In this document: positions 1 through 10,316 of the stretch, piece after piece
How the letters are laid out: each line of letters begins with the position of its first letter
How positions within the stretch are numbered: position 1 is the stretch's first letter
DNA from: a virus
UHGV virus genome: UHGV-0214301
Strand: one strand, 5' to 3'
DNA length: 10,316 nt
Made by a program: the position numbers and the translations under genes
Notes under the pieces: model-generated
The model's input: only the letters and a program-made list of their open reading frames with translations
Database searches by the model: none
Told to the model about the DNA's origin: nothing

Positions 1-1
1 T

Positions 2-967
2 ACCCAGACTATCCGCATGATTCTGGTTGTCACGAATACCGAAGCCATCACGCTGAAAATCGACCCGTCGGTGGTACTGGCGACCCGTAAATACGTGGAT
101 GATGAAGTCCTGGAATTAAGACTGTATGTGGATGACAAGATGAGAAACCACATTGCCGCACAGGATCCTCATATCCAGTATGCGCAGAAACATAATCCGA
201 CATTTACCGGAGAACCAAAAGCGCCGACGCCTGCCGCAGGAAATAACACCACGCGGATTGCGACCACTGAGTTTGTTCAGGCTGCTATTATCGCTCTGAT
301 TAACGGTGCGCCTGCCACGCTGGACACACTGAAAGAAATTGCCGCGGCCATTAACAATGACCCGAAATTCAGCACCACCATTAACAATGCGCTGTCAGGT
401 AAGCAGCCACTGGATGAGACGCTGACTCATTTGAGTGGAAAGGATGTTGCCGGTCTTCTCGCATACCTTGGTTTGGGAGAAGGCTCAGCATTACCTGTTG
501 GGGTGCCTGTTCCGTGGCCTTCAGCCACTCCGCCAACAGGCTGGCTGAAATGCAATGGTGCGGCTTTTTCTGCTGAAGAATACCCGGAACTGGCAAAGGC
601 TTACCCGACCAATAAATTGCCTGATTTACGAGGTGAATTTATTCGTGGCTGGGATGACGGGCGTGGTATTGATAATGGGCGAAGCCTTCTTACTGTTCAG
701 GGGTATGCAACAGAGGATCACGCTCATGGATTACCGTCAAGATCCACGATTGTGACTGATGCAACGATTAATTTTTATTTTGATGAAAGCTGGGTAAATA
801 GTGGCACAGACATTATCAAAAGAGGAAACACAAACGATGCCGGATTACCAGCACCGGATTATGGAACCTTTAAAACATATAAACAATCAGTGGCTGGTTT
901 AGGTGCCGCAGCCTCAGAAACGCGTCCGCGTAATATTGCATTTAACTATATCGTGAGGGCAGCCTGA
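2..967 (+). CDS. H: Tail fibre protein, C-terminal part (5' end lies upstream of the window); P2 gpH equivalent
   Basis: Open frame runs from the window edge (frame of position 2) to TGA at 965-967. The translation has a repeated ATTEFV-type fibre shaft motif and a C-terminal segment (PWPSATPPTGWL...GEFIRGWDDGRGID...HAHGLP) typical of Mu S/P1 S-type tail-collar fibre tips. The stop overlaps the start of the next gene as TGATG. Identification by recognition, not search. Confidence 0.88.
   Translation, partial: TQTIRMILVVTNTEAITLKIDPSVVLATRKYVDDEVLELRLYVDDKMRNHIAAQDPHIQYAQKHNPTFTGEPKAPTPAAGNNTTRIATTEFVQAAIIALINGAPATLDTLKEIAAAINNDPKFSTTINNALSGKQPLDETLTHLSGKDVAGLLAYLGLGEGSALPVGVPVPWPSATPPTGWLKCNGAAFSAEEYPELAKAYPTNKLPDLRGEFIRGWDDGRGIDNGRSLLTVQGYATEDHAHGLPSRSTIVTDATINFYFDESWVNSGTDIIKRGNTNDAGLPAPDYGTFKTYKQSVAGLGAAASETRPRNIAFNYIVRAA
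456..481. other. Candidate hix/gix-like 26-bp invertase crossover site, embedded in H at the constant/variable junction
   Basis: Sequence TTCTCGCATACC-TT-GGTTTGGGAGAA is an imperfect dyad: the left half and the reverse complement of the right half (TTCTCCCAAACC) agree at 9 of 12 positions. As I recall hixL (TTCTTGAAAACCAAGGTTTTTGATAA) it matches at about 19 of 26 positions, including the ACC-NN-GGTTT core. It encodes LLAYLGLGE, immediately before the collar-type variable tip. Confidence 0.4.
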
Positions 968-1569
968 TGCATAAAGCAATATTAAATAGTGAGTTTATTG
1001 CAACAAAGGCAGGGGATGTTACCGTTTATAACTACGATGGTGAAACACGGGAATATATTTCCACGTCAACTGAATATCTTGCTGTGGGTGTCGGTATTCC
1101 GGCATGTTCCTGTCTGGATGCACCTGGCATACATAAGGTTGGTTATGCAATCTGTCGTTCTGTGAATTTAAATTCATGGGAATATGTGCCAGACCATCGC
1201 GGTGAAATCGTCTATAGCACCGAAACAGGAGAATCGAAAGAAATCACAGCTCCGGGTGATTATCCTGAAAATACAACCACTATCGCCCCGTTAACGCCAT
1301 ACGATGAATGGAATGGTGAGAAATGGGTGACAGATACCGAGACACAGCATGGCGCAGCAGTAGATGCAGCAGAAGCACAGCGCCAGTCGCTGATTGATAC
1401 TGCAATGGCCTCCATCAATCTGATTCAACTGAAATTACAGGCCGGACGGAAGCTGACGCAGGCAGAAACAACCCGCCTTAACGCTGTGCTGGATTACATT
1501 GACGCGGTGACGGCAACAGATACCAGCACAGCGCCGGATGTCATCTGGCCTGAACTGCCGGAGGCGTAG
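967..1569 (+). CDS. G: Tail fibre assembly protein (Tfa/Mu U family; P2 gpG position)
   Basis: 200-aa ORF whose ATG overlaps the H stop (TGATG). The C-terminus (LNAVLDYIDAVTATDTSTAPDVIWPELPEA) carries the conserved Tfa signature ending APD-x-WP-x-x-P. It sits directly after the fibre gene. P2 gpG is 175 aa as I recall, so this is a different Tfa allele. Confidence 0.85.
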   Translation: MHKAILNSEFIATKAGDVTVYNYDGETREYISTSTEYLAVGVGIPACSCLDAPGIHKVGYAICRSVNLNSWEYVPDHRGEIVYSTETGESKEITAPGDYPENTTTIAPLTPYDEWNGEKWVTDTETQHGAAVDAAEAQRQSLIDTAMASINLIQLKLQAGRKLTQAETTRLNAVLDYIDAVTATDTSTAPDVIWPELPEA

Positions 1570-1669
1570 GCCATTCAATATCTGGCGCACCAGAAGTATC
1601 GACCAGCTCCAGTGCGTCCAGATAATCTAACCACAAATTGTATTGTTCTAAATCGCCACCTTTTAGCAG
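1541..1669 (-). pseudogene. Remnant of an oppositely oriented tail-fibre assembly gene (tfa', C-terminal ~40 codons only)
   Basis: The minus-strand frame translates to LLKGGDLEQYNLWLDYLDALELVDTSGAPDIEWPTPPAVQAR-stop. This aligns with the G C-terminus on the + strand (NAVLDYIDAVTATDTSTAPDVIWPELPEA). It is cut off upstream by an in-frame stop (+ strand 1670-1672) and overlaps the last ~29 nt of G head to head. Confidence 0.6.
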
Positions 1670-2137
1670 TCAACATCCGATCCTCTTTTGAAGGGAAAGG
1701 CATTAATCCATATGGGGTTCCTGAATTGTTAGCGCCAATTTCTTTCCGGATGCAGACTAAGAATTCACTCATATGCCATGCATTTTTTATAAACGACAAG
1801 CATTGCCCAAGAGTGCGTTAGATGATAGGTGGGAAGAAGTGACAGAAACAGCTAATATCATTGTTCAGCGTAGAGTTGGCAGTGGGCTATGCTCCATCAC
1901 TCAGTGTCCGATAGTATAGAGGCTTGCAGTCCAGTGCACAGATTAGTATGTGTCCGTTTTGTTTCATCCATGTATTGGGAACTGTATAGTTAAATAAAAA
2001 GTGTACAAATTACAATCGCCACTGTAATCATGTGAAAGAATAGATTAATATATCGCATCGGCAAACGTAAGGATGATGTTAAATCGCTTGTGGTTTCTAC
2101 TCACAAAATGATGTTTTATTAATTTTAGGGTTTTATT

Positions 2138-2162
2138 AAAAGGGGATGTAATATCCTTTTTT
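2138..2162 (+). terminator. Possible weak hairpin followed by a T-tract, ~48 bp upstream of the acyltransferase ATG
   Basis: AAAAGGGGAT-gtaat-ATCCTTTTTT: a short GGAT/ATCC stem extendable through G-U pairs, followed by T6. The stem is short and AT-rich, so function is uncertain. Confidence 0.2.
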
Positions 2163-2209
2163 ATAAATTTGATGTATGGTTTTTTGAACTTACACATAAA
2201 AGGTATAAC

Positions 2210-3364
2210 ATGCTGCCTAATCAATCAGTTTTACTTATCTGGATGTTTGTGTTGATGACCGCTATCATTGTTTTATTCTCCACGCAACAATTTAATTTCT
2301 TGGACAAGGATGTGAAATACCGAAATGAGCAGATAGATGGTCTCCGTTTTTTCTTATCAATATTTGTTGTGTTTCATCATTATGTGTTGTCTGAATCATA
2401 TTTTTTCGGCTCAGGATGGACATATGATGCAATCAAAGAGTATCCAGTTAACCAAGTTATTGGTAGATATGGGGTTTCCTTATTTTTCATGATCTCTGGA
2501 TTCTTGTTTTGCAATATTAAATCAAGCGCTAGAGATTGGTTTGTTTTTTATATAAAAAGATTCTTCAGGATAGCGCCTTTATTTACTTTATCATCTTGCG
2601 TTTGTATATCTTTAGCCTTTTTTTTATCACAAAATCCGTCAACATCAGACATATCACTAAAGAGCCTCGCCTATTGGTTTAATATGGGGTTGTCCATGAC
2701 TAAACCAGATATATTTAGTTTGCAAAACTCAAGTTTAATTAACGCTTCTGTAACTTGGACTTTGTACTGGGAATGGGGTTTTTATTTTTCACTGCCATTT
2801 GTATTATTTCTAAAATCAAAGTGGTGTGGGCTATCATTGTCTATCAGTATTATCTTTTTATGTGTTTTTATTTACGCAGATATTAATTCATTCAATGCAA
2901 CGCTCATTTCCTTCTTTTCTATAGGGTTTCTCTGCGCAGAGTTAACAAAAATAATTTCGCTATCTGTGCGAACTTGTAATGTGCTTATTGTTTTTGGGGG
3001 GGTGTTCTGCATTTTTATCGTGGATGATCCATATACAATCTTCAGTATTCCAGGTGTTGGTCTGATTTTTTTTGCTATATCAATGGGCGGAGATTTTTTT
3101 GGTTTATTAAAAATGAAAGGTGTTAGAAGACTTGGTGAAATAACATATAGTACTTATATGTTGCATGGAATTTTTCTCTATGTTCTAAATTTTTTTATTT
3201 CTCCTAATATAAGCAAACAGACATACATGTTGTTGTCGAGCTTTACTATCTTGCTTATTCTAATAATATCTTCATTTACATTTTATGTAATAGAAGCCCC
3301 ATTAAATAAATTAGGTTCTCAAATCGCCACTCGTATGCTTAAGACACATTTGAAGAGTCATTAA
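2210..3364 (+). CDS. Acyltransferase family 3 (OafA/Oac-like) integral membrane protein; probable surface-polysaccharide/LPS O-acyltransferase carried as cargo
   Basis: 384-aa ORF, hydrophobic throughout with multiple predicted membrane-spanning segments. It carries the AT3 hallmarks as I recognise them: an N-terminal R-x-IDGLR-x(10)-H motif (RNEQIDGLRFFLSIFVVFHH), GVSLFFMISGFLF, and a C-terminal ITYSTYMLH plus FYVIEAPLNKLG. About 30% GC on counted lines, sharply lower than the flanking tail genes. No fused SGNH domain. Start codon not certain (an internal Met lies at residue 17). Confidence 0.85.
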   Translation: MLPNQSVLLIWMFVLMTAIIVLFSTQQFNFLDKDVKYRNEQIDGLRFFLSIFVVFHHYVLSESYFFGSGWTYDAIKEYPVNQVIGRYGVSLFFMISGFLFCNIKSSARDWFVFYIKRFFRIAPLFTLSSCVCISLAFFLSQNPSTSDISLKSLAYWFNMGLSMTKPDIFSLQNSSLINASVTWTLYWEWGFYFSLPFVLFLKSKWCGLSLSISIIFLCVFIYADINSFNATLISFFSIGFLCAELTKIISLSVRTCNVLIVFGGVFCIFIVDDPYTIFSIPGVGLIFFAISMGGDFFGLLKMKGVRRLGEITYSTYMLHGIFLYVLNFFISPNISKQTYMLLSSFTILLILIISSFTFYVIEAPLNKLGSQIATRMLKTHLKSH

Positions 3365-3384
3365 ACATAGATAATGTTATTTTT

Positions 3385-3414
3385 GCTCTGAAGCGGTTTT
3401 TATTACTTCAGAGC
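3385..3414. terminator. Perfect 9-bp inverted repeat hairpin just after the acyltransferase stop; possible terminator or transcript-stabilising element
   Basis: GCTCTGAAG-cggtttttatta-CTTCAGAGC, 20 bp past the stop at 3362-3364. A T-run precedes the stem and another lies in the loop, but no U-tract follows on either strand, so it is not a canonical intrinsic terminator. Confidence 0.25.
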
Positions 3415-3466
3415 AATACGGATTCCGACAGGTCGGGGTTAAAAAACTGCGCATAACATTATCTGA

Positions 3467-3700
3467 GGGTGCCATTCTGGTTCTCTGGAAGCAACCAGAG
3501 CTAAAGATCGTATTGGTGGCAGACGTCCGAAACTCACCGCGAGTGAGTGGGAGCAGGCCGGACGGTTGCTGGCTGCGGGGGAGTCACGTCAACGTGTGGC
3601 GCTGATTTTTGATATTGGCCTGTCACCGCTCTATAAAAAATTCCCCTCATCAGCGACAAAGAATAAATTGTGTCATCCCTTAGCCAACCGGGACAAATAG
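3467..3700 (+). pseudogene. 3'-terminal remnant of a serine DNA invertase gene (Gin/Hin/Pin/Cin family), C-terminal HTH domain only
   Basis: The frame translates to ...LEATRAKDRIGGRRPKLTASEWEQAGRLLAAGESRQRVALIFDIGLSPLYKKFP..., matching the conserved C-terminal DNA-binding end of Gin/Pin-type invertases (GRIGGR-P-KLT...EWEQAGRLLA-G..R..VA-I.....S.LYK.FP). The frame is closed by TGA at 3464-3466 and there is no catalytic N-terminal domain or start codon upstream. Confidence 0.7.
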
Positions 3701-3740
3701 CCTGACATCTCCGGCACAACTGAAAATACCACTCACCCAT
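3668..3740 (+). promoter_or_regulatory. Putative Ogr-dependent late promoter for the FI operon (PF)
   Basis: Position is immediately upstream of FI. A partial dyad TTGT-N21-ACAA (3668-3696) is centred about 55 bp upstream of a plausible start near 3737. It does not match the TGT-N12-ACA consensus I recall for P2/P4 late promoters, so this is a low-confidence call. Confidence 0.3.
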
Positions 3741-3759
3741 TAACCACGGAGTTAAACGG

Positions 3760-4950
3760 ATGAGTGACTATCATCACGGCGTGCAGGTGCTGGAGATTAA
3801 CGACGGCACCCGCGTCATTTCCACCGTATCCACCGCCATTGTTGGCATGGTCTGCACGGCCAGCGATGCGGATGCGGAAACCTTCCCCCTCAATAAACCT
3901 GTGCTGATTACCAATGTGCAGAGCGCAATTGCAAAGGCCGGTAAAAAAGGCACGCTGGCGGCATCGTTGCAGGCCATCGCTGACCAGTCAAAACCGGTCA
4001 CCGTTGTCGTGCGCGTGGAAGACGGCACCGGTGATGACGAGGAAACGAAACTCGCGCAGACCGTTTCCAATATCATCGGCACCACCGACGAAAACGGTCA
4101 GTACACCGGACTGAAAGCCCTGCTGGCGGCGGAGTCGGTAACCGGTGTTAAACCGCGTATTCTCGGTGTGCCGGGACTGGACACCAAAGAGGTGGCTGTT
4201 GCACTGGCATCAGTCTGTCAGAAGCTGCGCGCTTTCGGGTATATCAGCGCATGGGGCTGTAAGACCATTTCCGAGGTGAAAGCCTACCGCCAGAATTTCA
4301 GCCAGCGTGAGCTGATGGTCATCTGGCCGGATTTCCTCGCATGGGATACGGTCACCAGTACCACCGCCACCGCGTATGCCACCGCCCGTGCGCTGGGTCT
4401 GCGCGCTAAAATCGACCAGGAGCAGGGCTGGCATAAAACGCTGTCCAACGTCGGGGTGAACGGTGTTACCGGCATCAGCGCATCCGTCTTCTGGGATTTG
4501 CAGGAGTCCGGCACCGATGCTGACCTGCTTAACGAGTCAGGCGTCACTACGCTGATTCGCCGCGACGGTTTCCGATTCTGGGGTAACCGTACCTGCTCTG
4601 ATGACCCGCTGTTCCTCTTTGAAAACTATACCCGCACCGCGCAGGTGCTGGCCGACACGATGGCTGAGGCGCACATGTGGGCGGTGGACAAGCCCATCAC
4701 CGCAACGCTGATTCGCGACATCGTTGACGGCATCAATGCCAAATTCCGTGAGCTGAAAACAAACGGCTATATCGTGGATGCGACCTGCTGGTTCAGCGAA
4801 GAATCCAACGATGCGGAAACCCTCAAGGCCGGAAAACTGTATATCGACTACGACTATACACCGGTGCCTCCTCTTGAAAACCTGACCCTGCGCCAGCGTA
4901 TTACCGATAAATACCTGGCAAATCTGGTCACCTCGGTTAACAGCAATTAA
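3760..4950 (+). CDS. FI: Contractile tail sheath protein
   Basis: 396-aa ORF, the same length as P2 gpFI as I recall, first gene of the FI-FII-E-T-U-D order. GGAG Shine-Dalgarno about 9 nt upstream. High-GC codon usage like the neighbouring tail genes. Confidence 0.93.
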   Translation: MSDYHHGVQVLEINDGTRVISTVSTAIVGMVCTASDADAETFPLNKPVLITNVQSAIAKAGKKGTLAASLQAIADQSKPVTVVVRVEDGTGDDEETKLAQTVSNIIGTTDENGQYTGLKALLAAESVTGVKPRILGVPGLDTKEVAVALASVCQKLRAFGYISAWGCKTISEVKAYRQNFSQRELMVIWPDFLAWDTVTSTTATAYATARALGLRAKIDQEQGWHKTLSNVGVNGVTGISASVFWDLQESGTDADLLNESGVTTLIRRDGFRFWGNRTCSDDPLFLFENYTRTAQVLADTMAEAHMWAVDKPITATLIRDIVDGINAKFRELKTNGYIVDATCWFSEESNDAETLKAGKLYIDYDYTPVPPLENLTLRQRITDKYLANLVTSVNSN

Positions 4951-4962
4951 GGAGCCTGACCG

Positions 4963-5481
4963 ATGGCAATGCCGCGCAAACTCAAGTTAATGAACGTCTT
5001 TCTGAACGGCTACAGCTATCAGGGCGTCGCGAAGTCCGTCACGCTGCCAAAACTGACCCGTAAGCTCGAAAACTATCGCGGTGCGGGGATGAACGGCAGC
5101 GCACCGGTAGACCTCGGCCTTGATGACGATGCGCTGTCAATGGAGTGGTCGCTCGGGGGCTTCCCGGATTCGGTTATCTGGGAGCTTTACGCCGCAACCG
5201 GTGTGGATGCTGTGCCGATTCGTTTTGCAGGCTCTTACCAGCGTGACGATACCGGCGAAACGGTGGCCGTCGAAGTGGTCATGCGTGGACGTCAGAAAGA
5301 AATCGACACCGGCGAGGGTAAACAGGGAGAAGACACTGAGTCGAAAATCTCCGTGGTCTGCACCTATTTCCGGCTGACGATGGACGGTAAGGAGCTGGTC
5401 GAAATCGACACCATCAACATGATTGAGAAGGTGAACGGCGTCGACCGGCTGGAGCAACACCGCCGCAATATCGGCCTGTGA
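4963..5481 (+). CDS. FII: Tail tube protein
   Basis: 172-aa ORF, the length of P2 gpFII, 12 nt after the FI stop, preceded by AAGGAG. Confidence 0.93.
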   Translation: MAMPRKLKLMNVFLNGYSYQGVAKSVTLPKLTRKLENYRGAGMNGSAPVDLGLDDDALSMEWSLGGFPDSVIWELYAATGVDAVPIRFAGSYQRDDTGETVAVEVVMRGRQKEIDTGEGKQGEDTESKISVVCTYFRLTMDGKELVEIDTINMIEKVNGVDRLEQHRRNIGL

Positions 5482-5537
5482 TTTTCATCCGGTCAGCCAG
5501 GCTGACCGGTTAACCCTGATTCAGAAGTGAGAAAACC

Positions 5538-5813
5538 ATGAACAAAGAAAATGTGATTACCCTGGACAATCCGGTCAAGCGTGGTGAGCAGGTCATCGAA
5601 CAGGTCACGCTGATGAAACCCAGTGCCGGGACGCTGCGCGGTGTCAGTCTGGCTGCGGTCGCAAACTCCGAAGTTGATGCACTAATTAAGGTGTTGCCGC
5701 GCATGACGGCACCGATGCTGACCGAGCAGGAAGTTGCCGCACTGGAACTGCCTGACCTTGTGGCGCTGGCCGGTAAGGTGGTCGGTTTTTTGTCGCCGAA
5801 CTCGGTGCAGTAA
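5538..5813 (+). CDS. E: Tail assembly chaperone E (zero-frame product)
   Basis: 91-aa ORF between the tube and tape-measure genes, the length of P2 gpE. It contains the slippery heptamer near its 3' end. Confidence 0.88.
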   Translation: MNKENVITLDNPVKRGEQVIEQVTLMKPSAGTLRGVSLAAVANSEVDALIKVLPRMTAPMLTEQEVAALELPDLVALAGKVVGFLSPNSVQ

Positions 5814-5965
5814 CGTTCCCGAAAAATCTCTCGGTCGATGACCTGATGGCGGATGTGGCAGTGATATTTCACTGGCCGCCATCAGAACTGTATCCCATGA
5901 GCCTGACCGAACTCATCACATGGCGCGAAAAGGCGCTCCGGCGAAGCGGAAACACGAATGAGTAA
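5538..5965 (+). CDS. E+E': Tail assembly chaperone E+E' (-1 frameshift fusion; 85 aa zero frame + 57 aa in -1 frame)
   Basis: Slipping at 5786-5792 and continuing in the -1 frame gives ...GFLVAELGAVTFPKNLSVDDLMADVAVIFHWPPSELYPMSLTELITWREKALRRSGNTNE-stop. The total is 142 aa, equal to P2 E+E' as I recall, and the end overlaps the T start at 5958, as in the P2 and lambda G/GT arrangement. Confidence 0.75.
5786..5792 (+). other. Programmed -1 ribosomal frameshift slippery heptamer T TTT TTG
   Basis: The zero-frame codons are TTT (5787-5789) and TTG (5790-5792), fitting the X XXY YYZ pattern. The -1 frame is open from here to TAA at 5963-5965. Confidence 0.75.
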
Positions 5966-8405
5966 CAATGTAAAATTACAGGTATTGCTCAGGGCTGTTG
6001 ACCAGGCATCCCGCCCGTTTAAATCCATCCGCACAGCGAGCAAATCGCTGTCGGGGGATATCCGGGAAACACAAAAATCACTGCGAGAGCTGAACGGTCA
6101 GGCATCCCGTATTGAGGGATTTCGCAAGACAAGTGCACAGCTCGCCGTGACTGGTCATGCACTTGAAAAGGCTCGGCAGGAAGCCGAAGCCCTTACCACA
6201 CAGTTTAAAAACACCGAACGTCCGACCCGTGCTCAGGCGAAAGTGCTGGAGTCCGCGAAGCGTGCGGCGGAGGACTTACAGGCGAAATATAACCGCCTGA
6301 CGGATTCCGTTAAACGCCAGCAGCGGGAACTGGCCGTTGTGGGAATTAATACCCGCAATCTTGCACGTGATGAGCAGGGACTGAAAAACCGTATCAGTGA
6401 AACCACCGCACAGCTTAACCGTCAGCGTGACGCGCTGGCGCGTGTCAGTGCGCAACAGGCAAAACTTAACGCAGTAAAACAGCGTTATCAGGCAGGCAAG
6501 GAACTGGCCGGAAATATGGCCTCAGTGGGCGCTGCCGGTGTGGGGATTGCGGCGGCGGGAACGATGGCCGGAGTTAAGTTGCTGACGCCCGGTTATGAGT
6601 TTGCGCAGAAAAACTCAGAATTGCAGGCCGTGCTCGGTGTGGCAAAAGATTCCGCCGAAATGGCCGCGCTCCGCAAGCAGGCGCGCCAGCTCGGCGATAA
6701 TACCGCCGCCTCGGCGGATGATGCAGCCGGTGCGCAGATTATCATTGCGAAAGCGGGTGGAGATGTTGATGCCATTCAGGCGGCAACGCCGGTCACGCTG
6801 AATATGGCGCTGGCGAACCGTCGCACGATGGAAGAAAACGCCGCCCTGCTGATGGGGATGAAATCCGCCTTTCAGCTTTCAAACGATAAGGTCGCTCATA
6901 TCGGGGATGTTCTCTCCATGACGATGAACAAAACCGCCGCCGATTTTGACGGCATGAGCGATGCGCTGACCTATGCCGCACCTGTGGCAAAAAATGCCGG
7001 TGTCAGCATTGAAGAAACCGCCGCAATGGTCGGGGCGCTGCATGATGCAAAAATCACAGGCTCAATGGCGGGAACGGGAAGCCGTGCCGTGTTAAGCCGC
7101 CTGCAGGCACCGACGGGAAAAGCATGGGATGCACTCAAAGAGCTTGGTGTGAAAACCTCAGACAGTAAGGGAAACACCCGACCAGTATTTACCATTCTGA
7201 AAGAAATGCAGGCCAGCTTTGAGAAAAACCGGCTCGGTACTGCCCAGCAGGCTGAATACATGAAAACCATTTTCGGGGAGGAGGCCAGTTCAGCCGCCGC
7301 CGTGCTGATGACTGCCGCCTCAACCGGAAAGCTGGACAAACTGACCGCTGCGTTTAAAGCCTCAGACGGAAAGACCGCAGAGCTGGTAAATATCATGCAG
7401 GACAACCTCGGCGGTGACTTTAAGGAGTTTCAGTCCGCTTATGAGGCGGTGGGGACTGACCTGTTTGACCAGCAGGAAGGCGCACTGCGTAAGCTCACGC
7501 AGACGGCCACAAAGTATGTGTTAAAACTCGACGGCTGGATCCAGAAAAACAAATCACTGGCGTCAACCATCGGCCTTATTGTCGGTGGTGCACTGGCGCT
7601 TACTGGCATCATCGGTGCAATTGGTCTTGTAGCCTGGCCGGTTATCACCGGCATTAATGCCATCATCGCGGCAGCAGGCGCAATGGGGGCAATCTTCACG
7701 ACGGTTGGCAGTGCTGTTATGACGGCCATCGGGGCGATTAGCTGGCCGATTGTGGCTGTGGTGGCCGCCATTGTCGCCGGGGCGTTGCTTATCCGTAAAT
7801 ACTGGGAGCCTGTCAGCGCATTCTTTGGCGGTGTGGTTGAAGGGCTGAAAGCGGCATTTGCGCCAGTGGGGGAACTGTTCACGCCACTTAAGCCGGTGTT
7901 TGACTGGCTGGGTGAAAAGTTACAGGCCGCGTGGCAGTGGTTTAAAAACCTGATTGCCCCGGTCAAAGCTACCCAGGACACCCTGAACCGTTGCCGTGAC
8001 ACGGGCGTCATGTTCGGGCAGGCACTGGCTGACGCGCTGATGCTGCCGCTTAATGCGTTCAACAAACTGCGCAGTGGTATTGACTGGGTACTGGAAAAAC
8101 TCGGTGTTATCAACAAAGAGTCAGACACACTTGACCAGACCGCCGCCAGAACTCAAGCCGCCACGTATGGCAGCGGTGGTTATATTCCGGCGACCAGCTC
8201 TTATGCAGGTTATCAGGCTTATCAGCCGGTCACGGCACCGGCTGGCCGCTCTTATGTGGACCAGAGTAAAAACGAATATCACATCAGCCTGACGGGTGGT
8301 ACTGCACCGGGGACACAGCTTGACCGCCAGTTACAGGATGCGCTCGAAAAATACGAGCGGGATAAACGTGCGCGCGCCCGTGCCAGCATGATGCATGACG
8401 GTTAA
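5958..8405 (+). CDS. T: Tail tape measure protein
   Basis: 815-aa ORF, the length of P2 gpT. The N-terminal region is rich in Q/R/A/L (coiled-coil-like), and there is a long Gly/Ala/Ile-rich hydrophobic segment (LASTIGLIVGGALALTGIIGAIGLVAWPVITG...), typical of tape measure proteins. Position follows E/E'. Confidence 0.93.
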   Translation: MSNNVKLQVLLRAVDQASRPFKSIRTASKSLSGDIRETQKSLRELNGQASRIEGFRKTSAQLAVTGHALEKARQEAEALTTQFKNTERPTRAQAKVLESAKRAAEDLQAKYNRLTDSVKRQQRELAVVGINTRNLARDEQGLKNRISETTAQLNRQRDALARVSAQQAKLNAVKQRYQAGKELAGNMASVGAAGVGIAAAGTMAGVKLLTPGYEFAQKNSELQAVLGVAKDSAEMAALRKQARQLGDNTAASADDAAGAQIIIAKAGGDVDAIQAATPVTLNMALANRRTMEENAALLMGMKSAFQLSNDKVAHIGDVLSMTMNKTAADFDGMSDALTYAAPVAKNAGVSIEETAAMVGALHDAKITGSMAGTGSRAVLSRLQAPTGKAWDALKELGVKTSDSKGNTRPVFTILKEMQASFEKNRLGTAQQAEYMKTIFGEEASSAAAVLMTAASTGKLDKLTAAFKASDGKTAELVNIMQDNLGGDFKEFQSAYEAVGTDLFDQQEGALRKLTQTATKYVLKLDGWIQKNKSLASTIGLIVGGALALTGIIGAIGLVAWPVITGINAIIAAAGAMGAIFTTVGSAVMTAIGAISWPIVAVVAAIVAGALLIRKYWEPVSAFFGGVVEGLKAAFAPVGELFTPLKPVFDWLGEKLQAAWQWFKNLIAPVKATQDTLNRCRDTGVMFGQALADALMLPLNAFNKLRSGIDWVLEKLGVINKESDTLDQTAARTQAATYGSGGYIPATSSYAGYQAYQPVTAPAGRSYVDQSKNEYHISLTGGTAPGTQLDRQLQDALEKYERDKRARARASMMHDG

Positions 8406-8419
8406 GGAGGTGACGAAAA

Positions 8420-8899
8420 ATGATGCTCGCGTTAGGTATGTTTGTTTTTATGCGCCAGACGCTGCCACACCAGACCATGCAGCGTGAATCAGATTATCGC
8501 TGGCCGTCAAATTCCCGTATCGGTAAACGGGATGCCTACCAGTTTCTCGGCGTTGGTGAGGAAAACATGACGCTTGCCGGTGTGCTTTATCCCGAACTGA
8601 CCGGCGGCAAGCTGACGATGACCACGCTCAGACTGATGGCAGAGGAAGGCCGGGCGTGGCCGTTGCTGGATGGCACAGGCATGATTTACGGCATGTATGT
8701 CATCAGCAGGGTGAGTGAAACAGGGAGTATTTTCTTTGCAGACGGCACACCCCGGAAAATTGATTTTACGCTGTCACTCACCCGCGTGGATGAATCACTG
8801 GCCGCGCTTTATGGCGATATCGGTAAACAGGCAGAATCGCTCATCGGTAAGGCTGGCAGTATGGCGACTAAATTCACGGGGATGACGGGGGCGGAATAA
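8420..8899 (+). CDS. U: Tail protein U (tail tube terminator/baseplate-proximal protein)
   Basis: 159-aa ORF, the length of P2 gpU, with a strong AAGGAGG Shine-Dalgarno at 8404-8410. The stop overlaps the D start as TAATG. Confidence 0.88.
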   Translation: MMLALGMFVFMRQTLPHQTMQRESDYRWPSNSRIGKRDAYQFLGVGEENMTLAGVLYPELTGGKLTMTTLRLMAEEGRAWPLLDGTGMIYGMYVISRVSETGSIFFADGTPRKIDFTLSLTRVDESLAALYGDIGKQAESLIGKAGSMATKFTGMTGAE

Positions 8900-10062
8900 T
8901 GCTGGATGCGCTGACATTTGATGCAGGCAGTACGCTGACGCCGGATTACATGCTGATGCTCGACAGCAGGGATATTACCGGCAATATCAGCGACCGTCTG
9001 ATGAGCATGACCCTGACGGATAACCGGGGCTTTGAGGCTGACCAGCTTGATATTGAACTGAACGATGCCGACGGGCAGGTCGGGCTGCCGGTTCGTGGCG
9101 CTGTCCTGACGGTGTATATCGGCTGGAAAGGTTTTGCCCTGGTATGCAAAGGGAAATTTACCGTTGATGAGGTTGAACACCGGGGCGCGCCGGATGTGGT
9201 TACCATCCGCGCCCGGAGTGCAGATTTTCGCGGGACGCTCAATTCCCGCCGGGAAGGCTCCTGGCATGACACCACGCTCGGTGCGATTGTTGAGGTGATA
9301 GCCTCCCGTAACAGGCTGGAAGCCAGTGTCGCGCCGTCACTGGCCGGAATTAAAATCCCGCACATCGACCAGTCGCAGGAGTCCGATGCGAAATTCCTGA
9401 CCCGTCTTGCTGAACGCAACGGCGGTGAGGTGTCGGTAAAAATGGGAAAATTGTTGTTTCTCAAAGCGGGGCAGGGGGTGACGGCCAGTGGTAAAAAAAT
9501 CCCGCAGGTCACCATAACCCGCAGCGACGGCGACCGCCATCATTTTGCGATTGCTGACCGTGGAGCCTATACCGGCGTAACGGCAAAGTGGTTACACACC
9601 AAAGACCCGAAGCCACAAAAGCAGAAGGTAAAACTGAAACGCAAAAAGAAAGAGAAACACCTGCGCGCACTGGAGCACCCGAAAGCGAAACCGGTCACGC
9701 AGAAGAAAGCGCCAAAAGTACCGGAAGCGCGCGAAGGTGAATACATGGCAGGTGAGGCTGACAACGTTTTTGCCCTGACCACGGTATATGCCACGAAAGC
9801 GCAGGCCATGCGCGCCGCTCAGGCGAAGTGGGATAAGCTGCAACGGGGCGTTGCGGAGTTCTCCATCAGTCTGGCTACTGGTCGGGCAGATATTTACACG
9901 GAAACGCCGGTCAGAGTATCAGGCTTTAAGCGCGTCATAGACGAGCAGGACTGGACAATCACTAAGGTGACACATTTTCTGAATAATAGCGGCTTCACGA
10001 CGTCCCTGGAGCTTGAGGTCAGGCTTTCTGATGTGGAGTACGAAACAGAAGATGATGAGTGA
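8899..10062 (+). CDS. D: Tail protein D (late gene D, tail/baseplate hub family)
   Basis: 387-aa ORF, the length of P2 gpD, translationally coupled to U and last gene before ogr. Contains a lysine-rich basic segment (KDPKPQKQKVKLKRKKKEKHLRALEHPKAKPVTQKKAPK). Confidence 0.88.
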   Translation: MLDALTFDAGSTLTPDYMLMLDSRDITGNISDRLMSMTLTDNRGFEADQLDIELNDADGQVGLPVRGAVLTVYIGWKGFALVCKGKFTVDEVEHRGAPDVVTIRARSADFRGTLNSRREGSWHDTTLGAIVEVIASRNRLEASVAPSLAGIKIPHIDQSQESDAKFLTRLAERNGGEVSVKMGKLLFLKAGQGVTASGKKIPQVTITRSDGDRHHFAIADRGAYTGVTAKWLHTKDPKPQKQKVKLKRKKKEKHLRALEHPKAKPVTQKKAPKVPEAREGEYMAGEADNVFALTTVYATKAQAMRAAQAKWDKLQRGVAEFSISLATGRADIYTETPVRVSGFKRVIDEQDWTITKVTHFLNNSGFTTSLELEVRLSDVEYETEDDE

Positions 10063-10080
10063 TGTTTTTATTTTATCTGT

Positions 10081-10109
10081 TTGTTTTATAAGGATAAATT
10101 AACTAAAAT
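10081..10109 (+). promoter_or_regulatory. Putative sigma-70 promoter of ogr
   Basis: TTGTTT (10081-10086), a 17-bp spacer, then TAAAAT (10104-10109). The predicted transcript start is about 27 nt upstream of the ATG at 10144, which has an AGGTG Shine-Dalgarno 7 nt upstream. Confidence 0.4.
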
Positions 10110-10143
10110 GGCACCATCAACAAAACCGGAAGAGGTGCTCGCG

Positions 10144-10316
10144 ATGTTTCATTGTCCTTTATGCCAGCATGCCGCACATGCGCGTACAAGTCGCTATATC
10201 ACTGACACGACAAAAGAGCGTTATCACCAGTGTCAGAACGTGAATTGCAGCGCCACGTTCATCACTTATGAGTCGGTACAGCGATACATCGTGAAGCCGG
10301 GAGAAGTCCACGCCGT
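10144..10316 (+). CDS. ogr: Late transcription activator Ogr (Cys4 zinc finger), 3' end beyond the window
   Basis: Translation MFHCPLCQHAAHARTSRYITDTTKERYHQCQNVNCSATFITYESVQRYIVKPGEVHA... matches P2 Ogr as I remember it, including the CPLC...CQNVNC zinc-binding cysteines. An in-frame ATG at 10108 would add 12 residues but lies inside the predicted -10 element, so 10144 is preferred. Confidence 0.9.
   Translation, partial: MFHCPLCQHAAHARTSRYITDTTKERYHQCQNVNCSATFITYESVQRYIVKPGEVHA

Follow-up and report, generated by a model that had tools for sequence, protein, structure and literature searches.

How an AT-rich interval with a gene foreign to the tail came to separate the tail-fibre assembly gene G from FI in a P2-like prophage, and why the end of G is overlapped on the opposite strand by what looks like the end of a second assembly gene, are the questions raised by the locus described here. 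The window, i.e., the whole stretch of 10,316 nucleotides that was analysed (UHGV virus genome UHGV-0214301), corresponds to the tail region of a P2-like prophage of Escherichia coli on the basis of its open reading frames (ORFs) and Pfam domains, and contains in this order the 3' part of the tail-fibre gene H, G, the AT-rich interval with an acyltransferase gene, FI, FII, E, T, U, and D. The G-FI interval is the Z/fun cargo hotspot of P2-like phages, a site of receptor-binding swaps, often with an invertase, and of accessory genes (bioRxiv 10.1101/2024.10.15.618418). A sequence-only reading of the window had proposed that the minus strand at 1541-1669 encodes the last ~40 residues of a tail-fibre assembly (Tfa) protein left over from an invertible tail-fibre segment, and that the cargo was inserted by deleting half of a host-range switch. 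The comparisons presented below indicate that the locus is very probably a non-functional fossil of a P2-type invertible host-range switch, replaced mainly by an O-acetyltransferase cassette. Neither the hotspot nor the switch nor a pseudogene of this kind is new; what is new is the particular cargo and the reconstruction of the locus at base level. The features concerned are collected in Table 1.

Table 1. Features mapped between the tail-fibre gene H and the F-operon promoter, in coordinates of the window.
Feature	Position	Strand	Basis
Tail-fibre gene H, 3' part	1..967	+	Window begins inside H; ORF 17..967, Phage_tail_fib and Collar domains
Left crossover site, 26 bp, TTCTCGCATACCTTGGTTTGGGAGAA, now orphan	456..481		Homology to the L002 repeat
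Tail-fibre assembly gene G, intact, 200 aa	967..1569	+	Caudo_TAP E 6.3e-32; phrog_105 E 1.2e-95
tfa' fossil, segment A	1541..1666	-	Last 41 codons and stop, in frame, 29-nt overlap with G
Internal deletion junction in the tfa' fossil	1646..1668	-	Pairwise alignments to L012, L001 and L002
tfa' fossil, segment B	1667..1775	-	Roughly codons 40-78 of a divergent tfa' allele, small indels
Left cargo junction, TCATATG	1769..1775		Three-way comparison of the window, L012 and L128
Cargo leader	1776..2209	+	Homology and composition
Membrane acyltransferase gene, 384 aa	2210..3364	+	Acyl_transf_3 (PF01757) E 1.2e-26, residues 40-354
Invertase fossil, N-terminal piece	3403..3492	+	About residues 36-63, frameshifted; 83% DNA identity to L002 6180-6249
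Invertase fossil, C-terminal piece	3493..3700	+	Residues ~127 to end; helix-turn-helix; HTH_7 E 2.5e-11
Ogr activator binding site, F-operon late promoter	3662..3695	+	Alignment with P2 (annotated site, transcription start)

The minus-strand translation of 1541-1669 reads LLKGGDLEQYNLWLDYLDALELVDTSGAPDIEWPTPPAVQAR followed by a stop codon, and an in-frame stop lies immediately upstream at 1670-1672. This peptide matches the Pfam family Caudo_TAP (PF02413; E 8.6e-10, 39.3 bits against a threshold of 22.1 bits) over the last 33 positions of the profile only (99-131 of 131), and is assigned to phrog_188, tail fibre assembly protein (E 4.5e-17). When aligned to residues 107-147 and the stop of intact 147-aa tfa' genes it shows 90-93% identity (E ~1e-21), and it is present in 54 phage records that comprise P2-like, Mu-like and lambdoid phages. 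The proposed Tfa C-terminus is therefore confirmed. The overlap with the 3' end of G that had been pointed out measures 29 nt, and the same length is annotated in five other loci (L001, L002, L003, L012, and that of E. coli K-12), some of them with intact switches; the two genes had been described as ending head to head, however, when in fact G and tfa' converge tail to tail. Of the 5426 complete E. coli genomes, 2544 contain the convergent tfa junction sequence.

The arrangement from which such a remnant could derive is preserved in two relatives, Wadgaonvirus wv5004651 (L001; NC_049342) and Peduovirus magyaro (L002; NC_041848), whose gene order is H, G, tfa' (minus strand, 147 aa), alternative tip (minus strand), crossover site, DNA invertase and FI. 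In L002 the crossover sites form a perfect inverted repeat of 31 nt that encloses 1833 nt; one copy lies within H, and its partner separates the alternative tip from the invertase. L001 has a 27-nt inverted crossover pair. DNA identity between the window and these two genomes is 92-97% across G and the 3' end of tfa', as far as 1666. P2-like prophage switches of this type invert experimentally in EPEC E2348/69 (PMC4272514). The annotated invertase of L002 (6063-6557) runs out of frame from about residue 127 (...EAEPKVVLVADDRNSPRV...) with respect to L001 and to the window fossil, which reflects either a real frameshift, leaving an inactive switch there too, or a sequencing error.

In the window, positions 452-482 are 100% identical, in inverse orientation, to L002 5965-5995, i.e., to the site between the alternative tip and the invertase. 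A second copy was not found in the window at up to 3 mismatches, nor any inverted repeat of at least 16 nt within 1-3800. Where a Din-family switch has two inverted crossover sites, the window thus has a single one, and where such a switch has two tip-plus-tfa sets, the window has one intact set (the H tip and G) plus the tfa' fossil. The part of H downstream of the crossover site is the variable tip now expressed; the complete H gene (441 aa) can be seen in an identical locus, L004. Synteny with L001 and L002 argues for ancestral membership in the Din-family invertible segments, and the invertible-segment origin deduced earlier from the convergent pair is in this respect upheld by the comparison.

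Past G, homology to L001 and L002 extends as far as 1666 and is regained at 3424 and 3493. The breakpoint of the supposed cargo insertion had been expected near 1670, to be located by alignment to P2-like phages. A lower-stringency DNA search recovered, beyond this point, a further piece of tfa': 1669-1775 is 79% identical at the DNA level to the annotated interior of tfa' in 239 E. coli genomes, including ATCC 11775 (locus L012). Since tfa' resumes after ~1666-1670, the break there is a deletion inside the pseudogene and not the boundary of the cargo. According to the alignment with L012, the deletion removed ~75-87 nt (roughly codons 80-106), and short TTT(C/T)AG repeats allow its edge to be placed anywhere from 1646 to 1668. 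Segment B carries at least 4 small indels relative to the L012 gene in a gapped alignment, as a result of which its tblastn matches switch between two reading frames (e.g., KEIGANNSGTP...PSKEDRMLTAK against KEIGADSSGRP...PSKEDEVLTAE). A 17-mer taken from this segment was also tried as a probe; nearly all of its matches were due to chance, and the relevant one, the Shigella flexneri locus L025, was no better than L012.

The homology to tfa' stops at CTCATATG (1768-1775). Within it, TCATATG is common to the tfa' allele and to the incoming DNA and constitutes a 7-bp microhomology, the position of which is approximate to within a few bases since the sequences compared are only 67-79% identical to the window. 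An exact 41-mer across this junction had zero matches among the GTDB species representatives. Instead of an ORF for a full-length chaperone (~147 aa in relatives), tfa' of the window shows the stop at 1670-1672, the internal deletion and frameshifts within 1667-1775, and the minus strand of 1541-1775 is, as judged from these alignments, a tfa' pseudogene. Its 40 N-terminal codons are not recognisable in the window by alignment or tblastn. The earlier statement that everything upstream of the remnant is gone holds for the alternative tip, which left no trace detectable by tblastn or Pfam (the six frames of 1667-2209 gave nothing significant with Pfam, and no alternative-tip fossil shows there); it does not hold for segment B, the invertase fossil and the left crossover site, which persist.

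The right-hand edge of the interval is formed by what is left of the invertase. The tblastn fragments of its N-terminal piece fall in two frames, and the C-terminal piece is 97% identical to L002 from 6445 onward; the two are joined at 3492/3493 by a 195-bp internal deletion. The first 35 residues of serine invertases carry the catalytic serine, and residues 1-35 are absent from the window, where HTH_7 was detected without a resolvase catalytic domain. The Fis-dependent recombinational enhancer usually lies inside the 5' coding region of the invertase; that region, where the enhancer would be expected, is deleted as well. The anatomy of the fossils, both junctions, the orphan site and the loss of the catalytic region together mean that the segment is unable to invert and that the fibre is fixed as H plus G. 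At its other end the fossil runs into the F operon, its last codons and stop overlapping the Ogr site within 3662-3700. Homology between phage P2 and the window starts inside this Ogr site, which gives the exact right edge of the Z/fun hotspot. In L012 (4754-6867), a Mu/e14-type prophage, intact tfa/tfa'/tip genes stand beside a truncated recombinase ("missing C-terminus") that is followed by a DUF262-domain gene, apparently a parallel case, which suggests that cargo repeatedly overwrites switch invertases.

Between these two fossils lies DNA with a GC content of 0.28-0.34, compared with ~0.5 in the flanks. By its location between G and the pF promoter/FI, its deviating composition and its absence from L001 and L002 it has the properties of Z/fun cargo. 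Its first part, 1769-1968, is homologous to a non-coding block of P22-like/lambdoid prophages that has the integrase gene on its 5' side and O-antigen conversion genes on its 3' side. In one prophage the identity is 67% over the whole of 1769-1968; in 64 others the match covers 1911-1968 at 81-86%. Downstream of the block comes a conversion gene for a CatB-type O-acetyltransferase (L129, L131) or for an Acyl_transf_3 protein (L130), and in L128 the block adjoins a tailspike gene. The core of ~58 nt (window 1911-1968; ~4145-4203 in L128, 4001-4049 in L129, 3501-3558 in L130 and L131), which reads AAAGCCTTGCAATCCAGTGCAAAGCTTTGTGTGTCTCCGTTTTGTTTCAT in the relatives, recurs in the P22-like prophages of 65 E. 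coli genomes, directly behind the integrase stop and with differing O-antigen conversion genes on its other side. It contains a short stem with a T-rich run after it, and may serve as a terminator for the integrase gene or as a leader of the conversion genes. An assignment of 1773-1919 to an integrase C-terminus found no support, as the sole match (E 3e-4) falls just downstream of the integrase gene, outside it; a weak protein-level echo of the leader occurs directly after the integrase of phage IdasGreatGrand. The remainder of the leader is very AT-rich upstream of the acyltransferase gene (2000-2209), and 1969-2209 had no homologue in any of the collections searched.

The acyltransferase belongs to phrog_3333, O-acetyltransferase (E 7.6e-51), shares 34% identity with the L130 protein encoded in the conversion locus of a P22-like prophage, and is probably an O-antigen/LPS O-acetyltransferase as far as its sequence indicates. 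Its nearest relatives (44-46% identity) are chromosomal and located between ompW and trpA in Pseudescherichia; relatives in IMG/VR reach 36-38% identity at best. The cargo region 1667-3423 had no match in the phage collection, and in plasmids and the 5426 complete E. coli genomes the only cargo matches were the tfa' piece and the leader block. The exact protein is absent from these complete genomes and from the phage records and plasmids searched; it is present in many E. coli draft assemblies, and the layout was identical in all 24 of the contigs that were read. A consensus scan found neither a convincing promoter ahead of 2210 nor a canonical terminator behind 3364. Right after the acyltransferase stop, an 8-bp inverted repeat (CTCTGAAG...CTTCAGAG, 3382-3409) was noticed by eye; it has no T-run and was not called by the terminator scan, and could be the terminator of the cassette.

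Positions 1-3888 of the window (H tip, G, both fossils, cargo and start of FI) differ by one mismatch from six loci of E. coli draft genomes (L004-L009), whereas from 3889 to 10316 about 2.85% of the positions differ, with zero indels. The near-identity of the first block and the divergence of the second imply that the cargo-bearing block resides on at least two different P2-like backbones, and hence that it has been exchanged by homologous recombination with a crossover inside FI. In the same six loci the prophage ends, at 16426-17155, with an Ogr/Delta gene beside a Peptidase_U32 gene. This end presumably resembles the ogrK-yegQ neighbourhood of K-12, the site of a cryptic P2 remnant, and by analogy suggests the same attachment site.

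From the anatomy, homologies and breakpoints observed, the following history may be proposed. The ancestor would have been a P2-like phage with a serine-invertase host-range switch between H and FI, in which two inverted crossover sites of 26-31 bp, one in H and the other beside the invertase, flanked two convergent sets of a tip gene and its matching assembly gene (G and tfa'). Illegitimate recombination would then have joined foreign AT-rich DNA to tfa' at TCATATG and to the invertase near codon 36 (~3400). This would have cost tfa' ~40 N-terminal codons and the invertase its promoter and its first third, with the catalytic serine; the alternative tip and the right crossover site would have disappeared altogether, and a ~1.6-kb cassette encoding a membrane O-acetyltransferase would have taken the place of what was lost. 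The cassette probably derives from a P22-like or lambdoid prophage, and there from the serotype-conversion locus close to the integrase gene. Later decay would account for the ~80-nt internal deletion and several frameshifts in the tfa' fossil and for the 195-bp deletion and a frameshift in the invertase fossil, the fibre now being locked in the H-G state. Two internal deletions and several frameshifts point to stepwise decay as opposed to one clean insertion-deletion; as had been proposed, the cargo does occupy the place of the former switch. The outermost ends of the fossils would owe their survival to an overlap with essential neighbours (the final codons of G on one side, the pF activator site on the other), which explains the very ends but not the full lengths retained.

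In a wider sense, it is conceivable, and is put forward tentatively, that a serotype-conversion cassette of a P22-like/lambdoid prophage, made up of the leader from downstream of the integrase gene and the O-acetyltransferase gene, entered the Z/fun hotspot of a P2-like phage by microhomology joining, that a host-range switch was traded in this way for a surface-modifying gene, and that the block from the H tip to the 5' part of FI is now mobile between P2-like backbones by homologous recombination. If so, the capture of the cassette would be a cross-family transfer, to which that of the sopE cassette is comparable.

The order of events admits an alternative. No intermediate, i.e., the cargo beside an undeleted tfa' or invertase, was found among the 24 contigs read with the exact acyltransferase, so that replacement in a single event and the succession of steps are what we infer from the fossils. 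The switch could instead have decayed first, by loss of the tip, the site and the invertase to deletions in a domesticated or defective prophage, and the cargo could have arrived later in an already dead locus. Decay certainly happened, as both fossils have several independent lesions, and truncated invertases do occur beside unrelated cargo elsewhere (e.g., the recombinase and DUF262 gene of L012). Both edges of the cargo, however, directly abut tfa' and invertase sequence, for which one replacement is the simplest explanation, and FI to D of the window are intact ORFs; prior decay is therefore considered unlikely, and replacement of a switch by the cassette followed by decay of its remains is preferred.

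The symmetry of the G/tfa' junction has likewise been open to other interpretations. The two overlapping ends had been described as a near-palindrome around 1519-1605. A fold does exist in the prediction, since 1501-1618 forms a long imperfect hairpin (-51.9 kcal/mol, z -3.7) whose stability none of 200 shuffled sequences reached, but the dyad itself is weak, with 22 of 40 positions complementary at its best centre (1559/1560), and the repeat finder returned no inverted repeat of at least 10 nt at the junction. Two homologous C-terminal coding ends facing each other are sufficient to produce such a by-product, and nothing about the symmetry requires a structural role. It might nonetheless be argued that 1501-1618 was kept for its structure. 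Where the late V-W-J-I-H-G operon ends, the hairpin might terminate transcription, act as an insulator or stabilise the mRNA, and so keep late transcription away from a cargo that is expressed in the lysogen; the prediction of the fold extends to all seven loci compared, and the interval from G to the cargo has no other plus-strand terminator-like site. Against this, compensatory changes were seen in none of the 38 predicted pairs (covariation term +0.23), conservation of the fold is fully accounted for by the two overlapping coding sequences in intact relatives, the stem is not followed by a T-run, and the plus-strand terminator scan gave no call. An Rfam search of 1400-3800 returned no RNA family. 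Maintenance for structure is thus quite improbable, and a conserved terminator role, which the earlier reading had itself considered as a case without tfa' ancestry, was rejected as unsupported for want of covariation. The remaining suggestion, that the Tfa-like reading has no gene ancestry of its own and only mirrors the 3' end of G, by chance or through the palindrome, can be dismissed with near certainty: G and the remnant do have the C-terminal motif LDY-DA---DTS-APD--WP--P in common, but they share just 17 of 37 residues and fall in different PHROGs (phrog_105 and phrog_188), and DNA homology to independent intact tfa' genes continues for 97 nt past the end of G and then for 109 nt more.

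Taken as the fossil of a replaced switch, the locus would illustrate at base level how the P2 Z/fun hotspot acquires cargo, in this case by the overwriting of a phase-variable host-range switch; what survives at the edges is sequence in common with essential neighbours, namely with the 3' end of G and with the F-operon activator site. In annotations, 1541-1775 and ~3403-3700 are best treated as pseudogenes, and the small ORFs within them not as genes. A fixed host range is predicted for the phage, which probably also alters the O-antigen of its host; both points leave the current understanding of such systems as it is.

Among known systems, the intact P2-like switches of L001 and L002 share with the window the gene order, the position between H and FI and the 29-nt G/tfa' overlap; the left crossover site of L002 is identical, and the 3' end of its invertase together with FI is 97% identical. 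The window differs from them in lacking ~40 tfa' codons, the alternative tip, the right site and the 5' third of the invertase, and in having the 1.6-kb cassette. The G segment of Mu (S/U, S'/U', gin), the C segment of P1 (cin) and the P segment of e14 (pin) are Din-family invertible host-range switches. The resemblance to these lies in the convergent tip-plus-tfa pairs, the crossover site at the boundary between the constant and variable parts of the fibre gene, and the adjacent serine invertase with a C-terminal HTH_7 domain; in contrast to them, the window holds a fossil only, and its ancestor would have been of the P2 type, in which the invertase is directly upstream of the F-operon promoter. 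Phage P2 itself has the non-essential gene fun(Z) between G and FI (P2 annotation), with no tfa' remnant between G and fun(Z), whereas the cargo of the window is an O-acetyltransferase gene flanked by switch fossils. HK97 keeps only fragments of side tail-fibre genes; its annotated tfa (gp29) is 100% identical to the remnant peptide over residues 17-42 of the latter, in a lambdoid siphovirus devoid of an invertase context.

The closest analogue is found in the CPS-53/KpLE1 element of E. coli K-12, where a truncated tfa ("missing N-terminus"), presumably the gene known as tfaS, converges on yfdK, an intact tfa, with the same 29-nt overlap as in the window and adjoins yfdH and yfdI, genes of the O-antigen-modification type. 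The junction in K-12 is 92.8% identical to window 1300-1645. The two cases differ in that the truncated copy of K-12 is the G-like partner and resides in a defective P22-like/lambdoid element, whereas in the window it is tfa' that has been truncated, within an intact-looking P2-like tail cluster.
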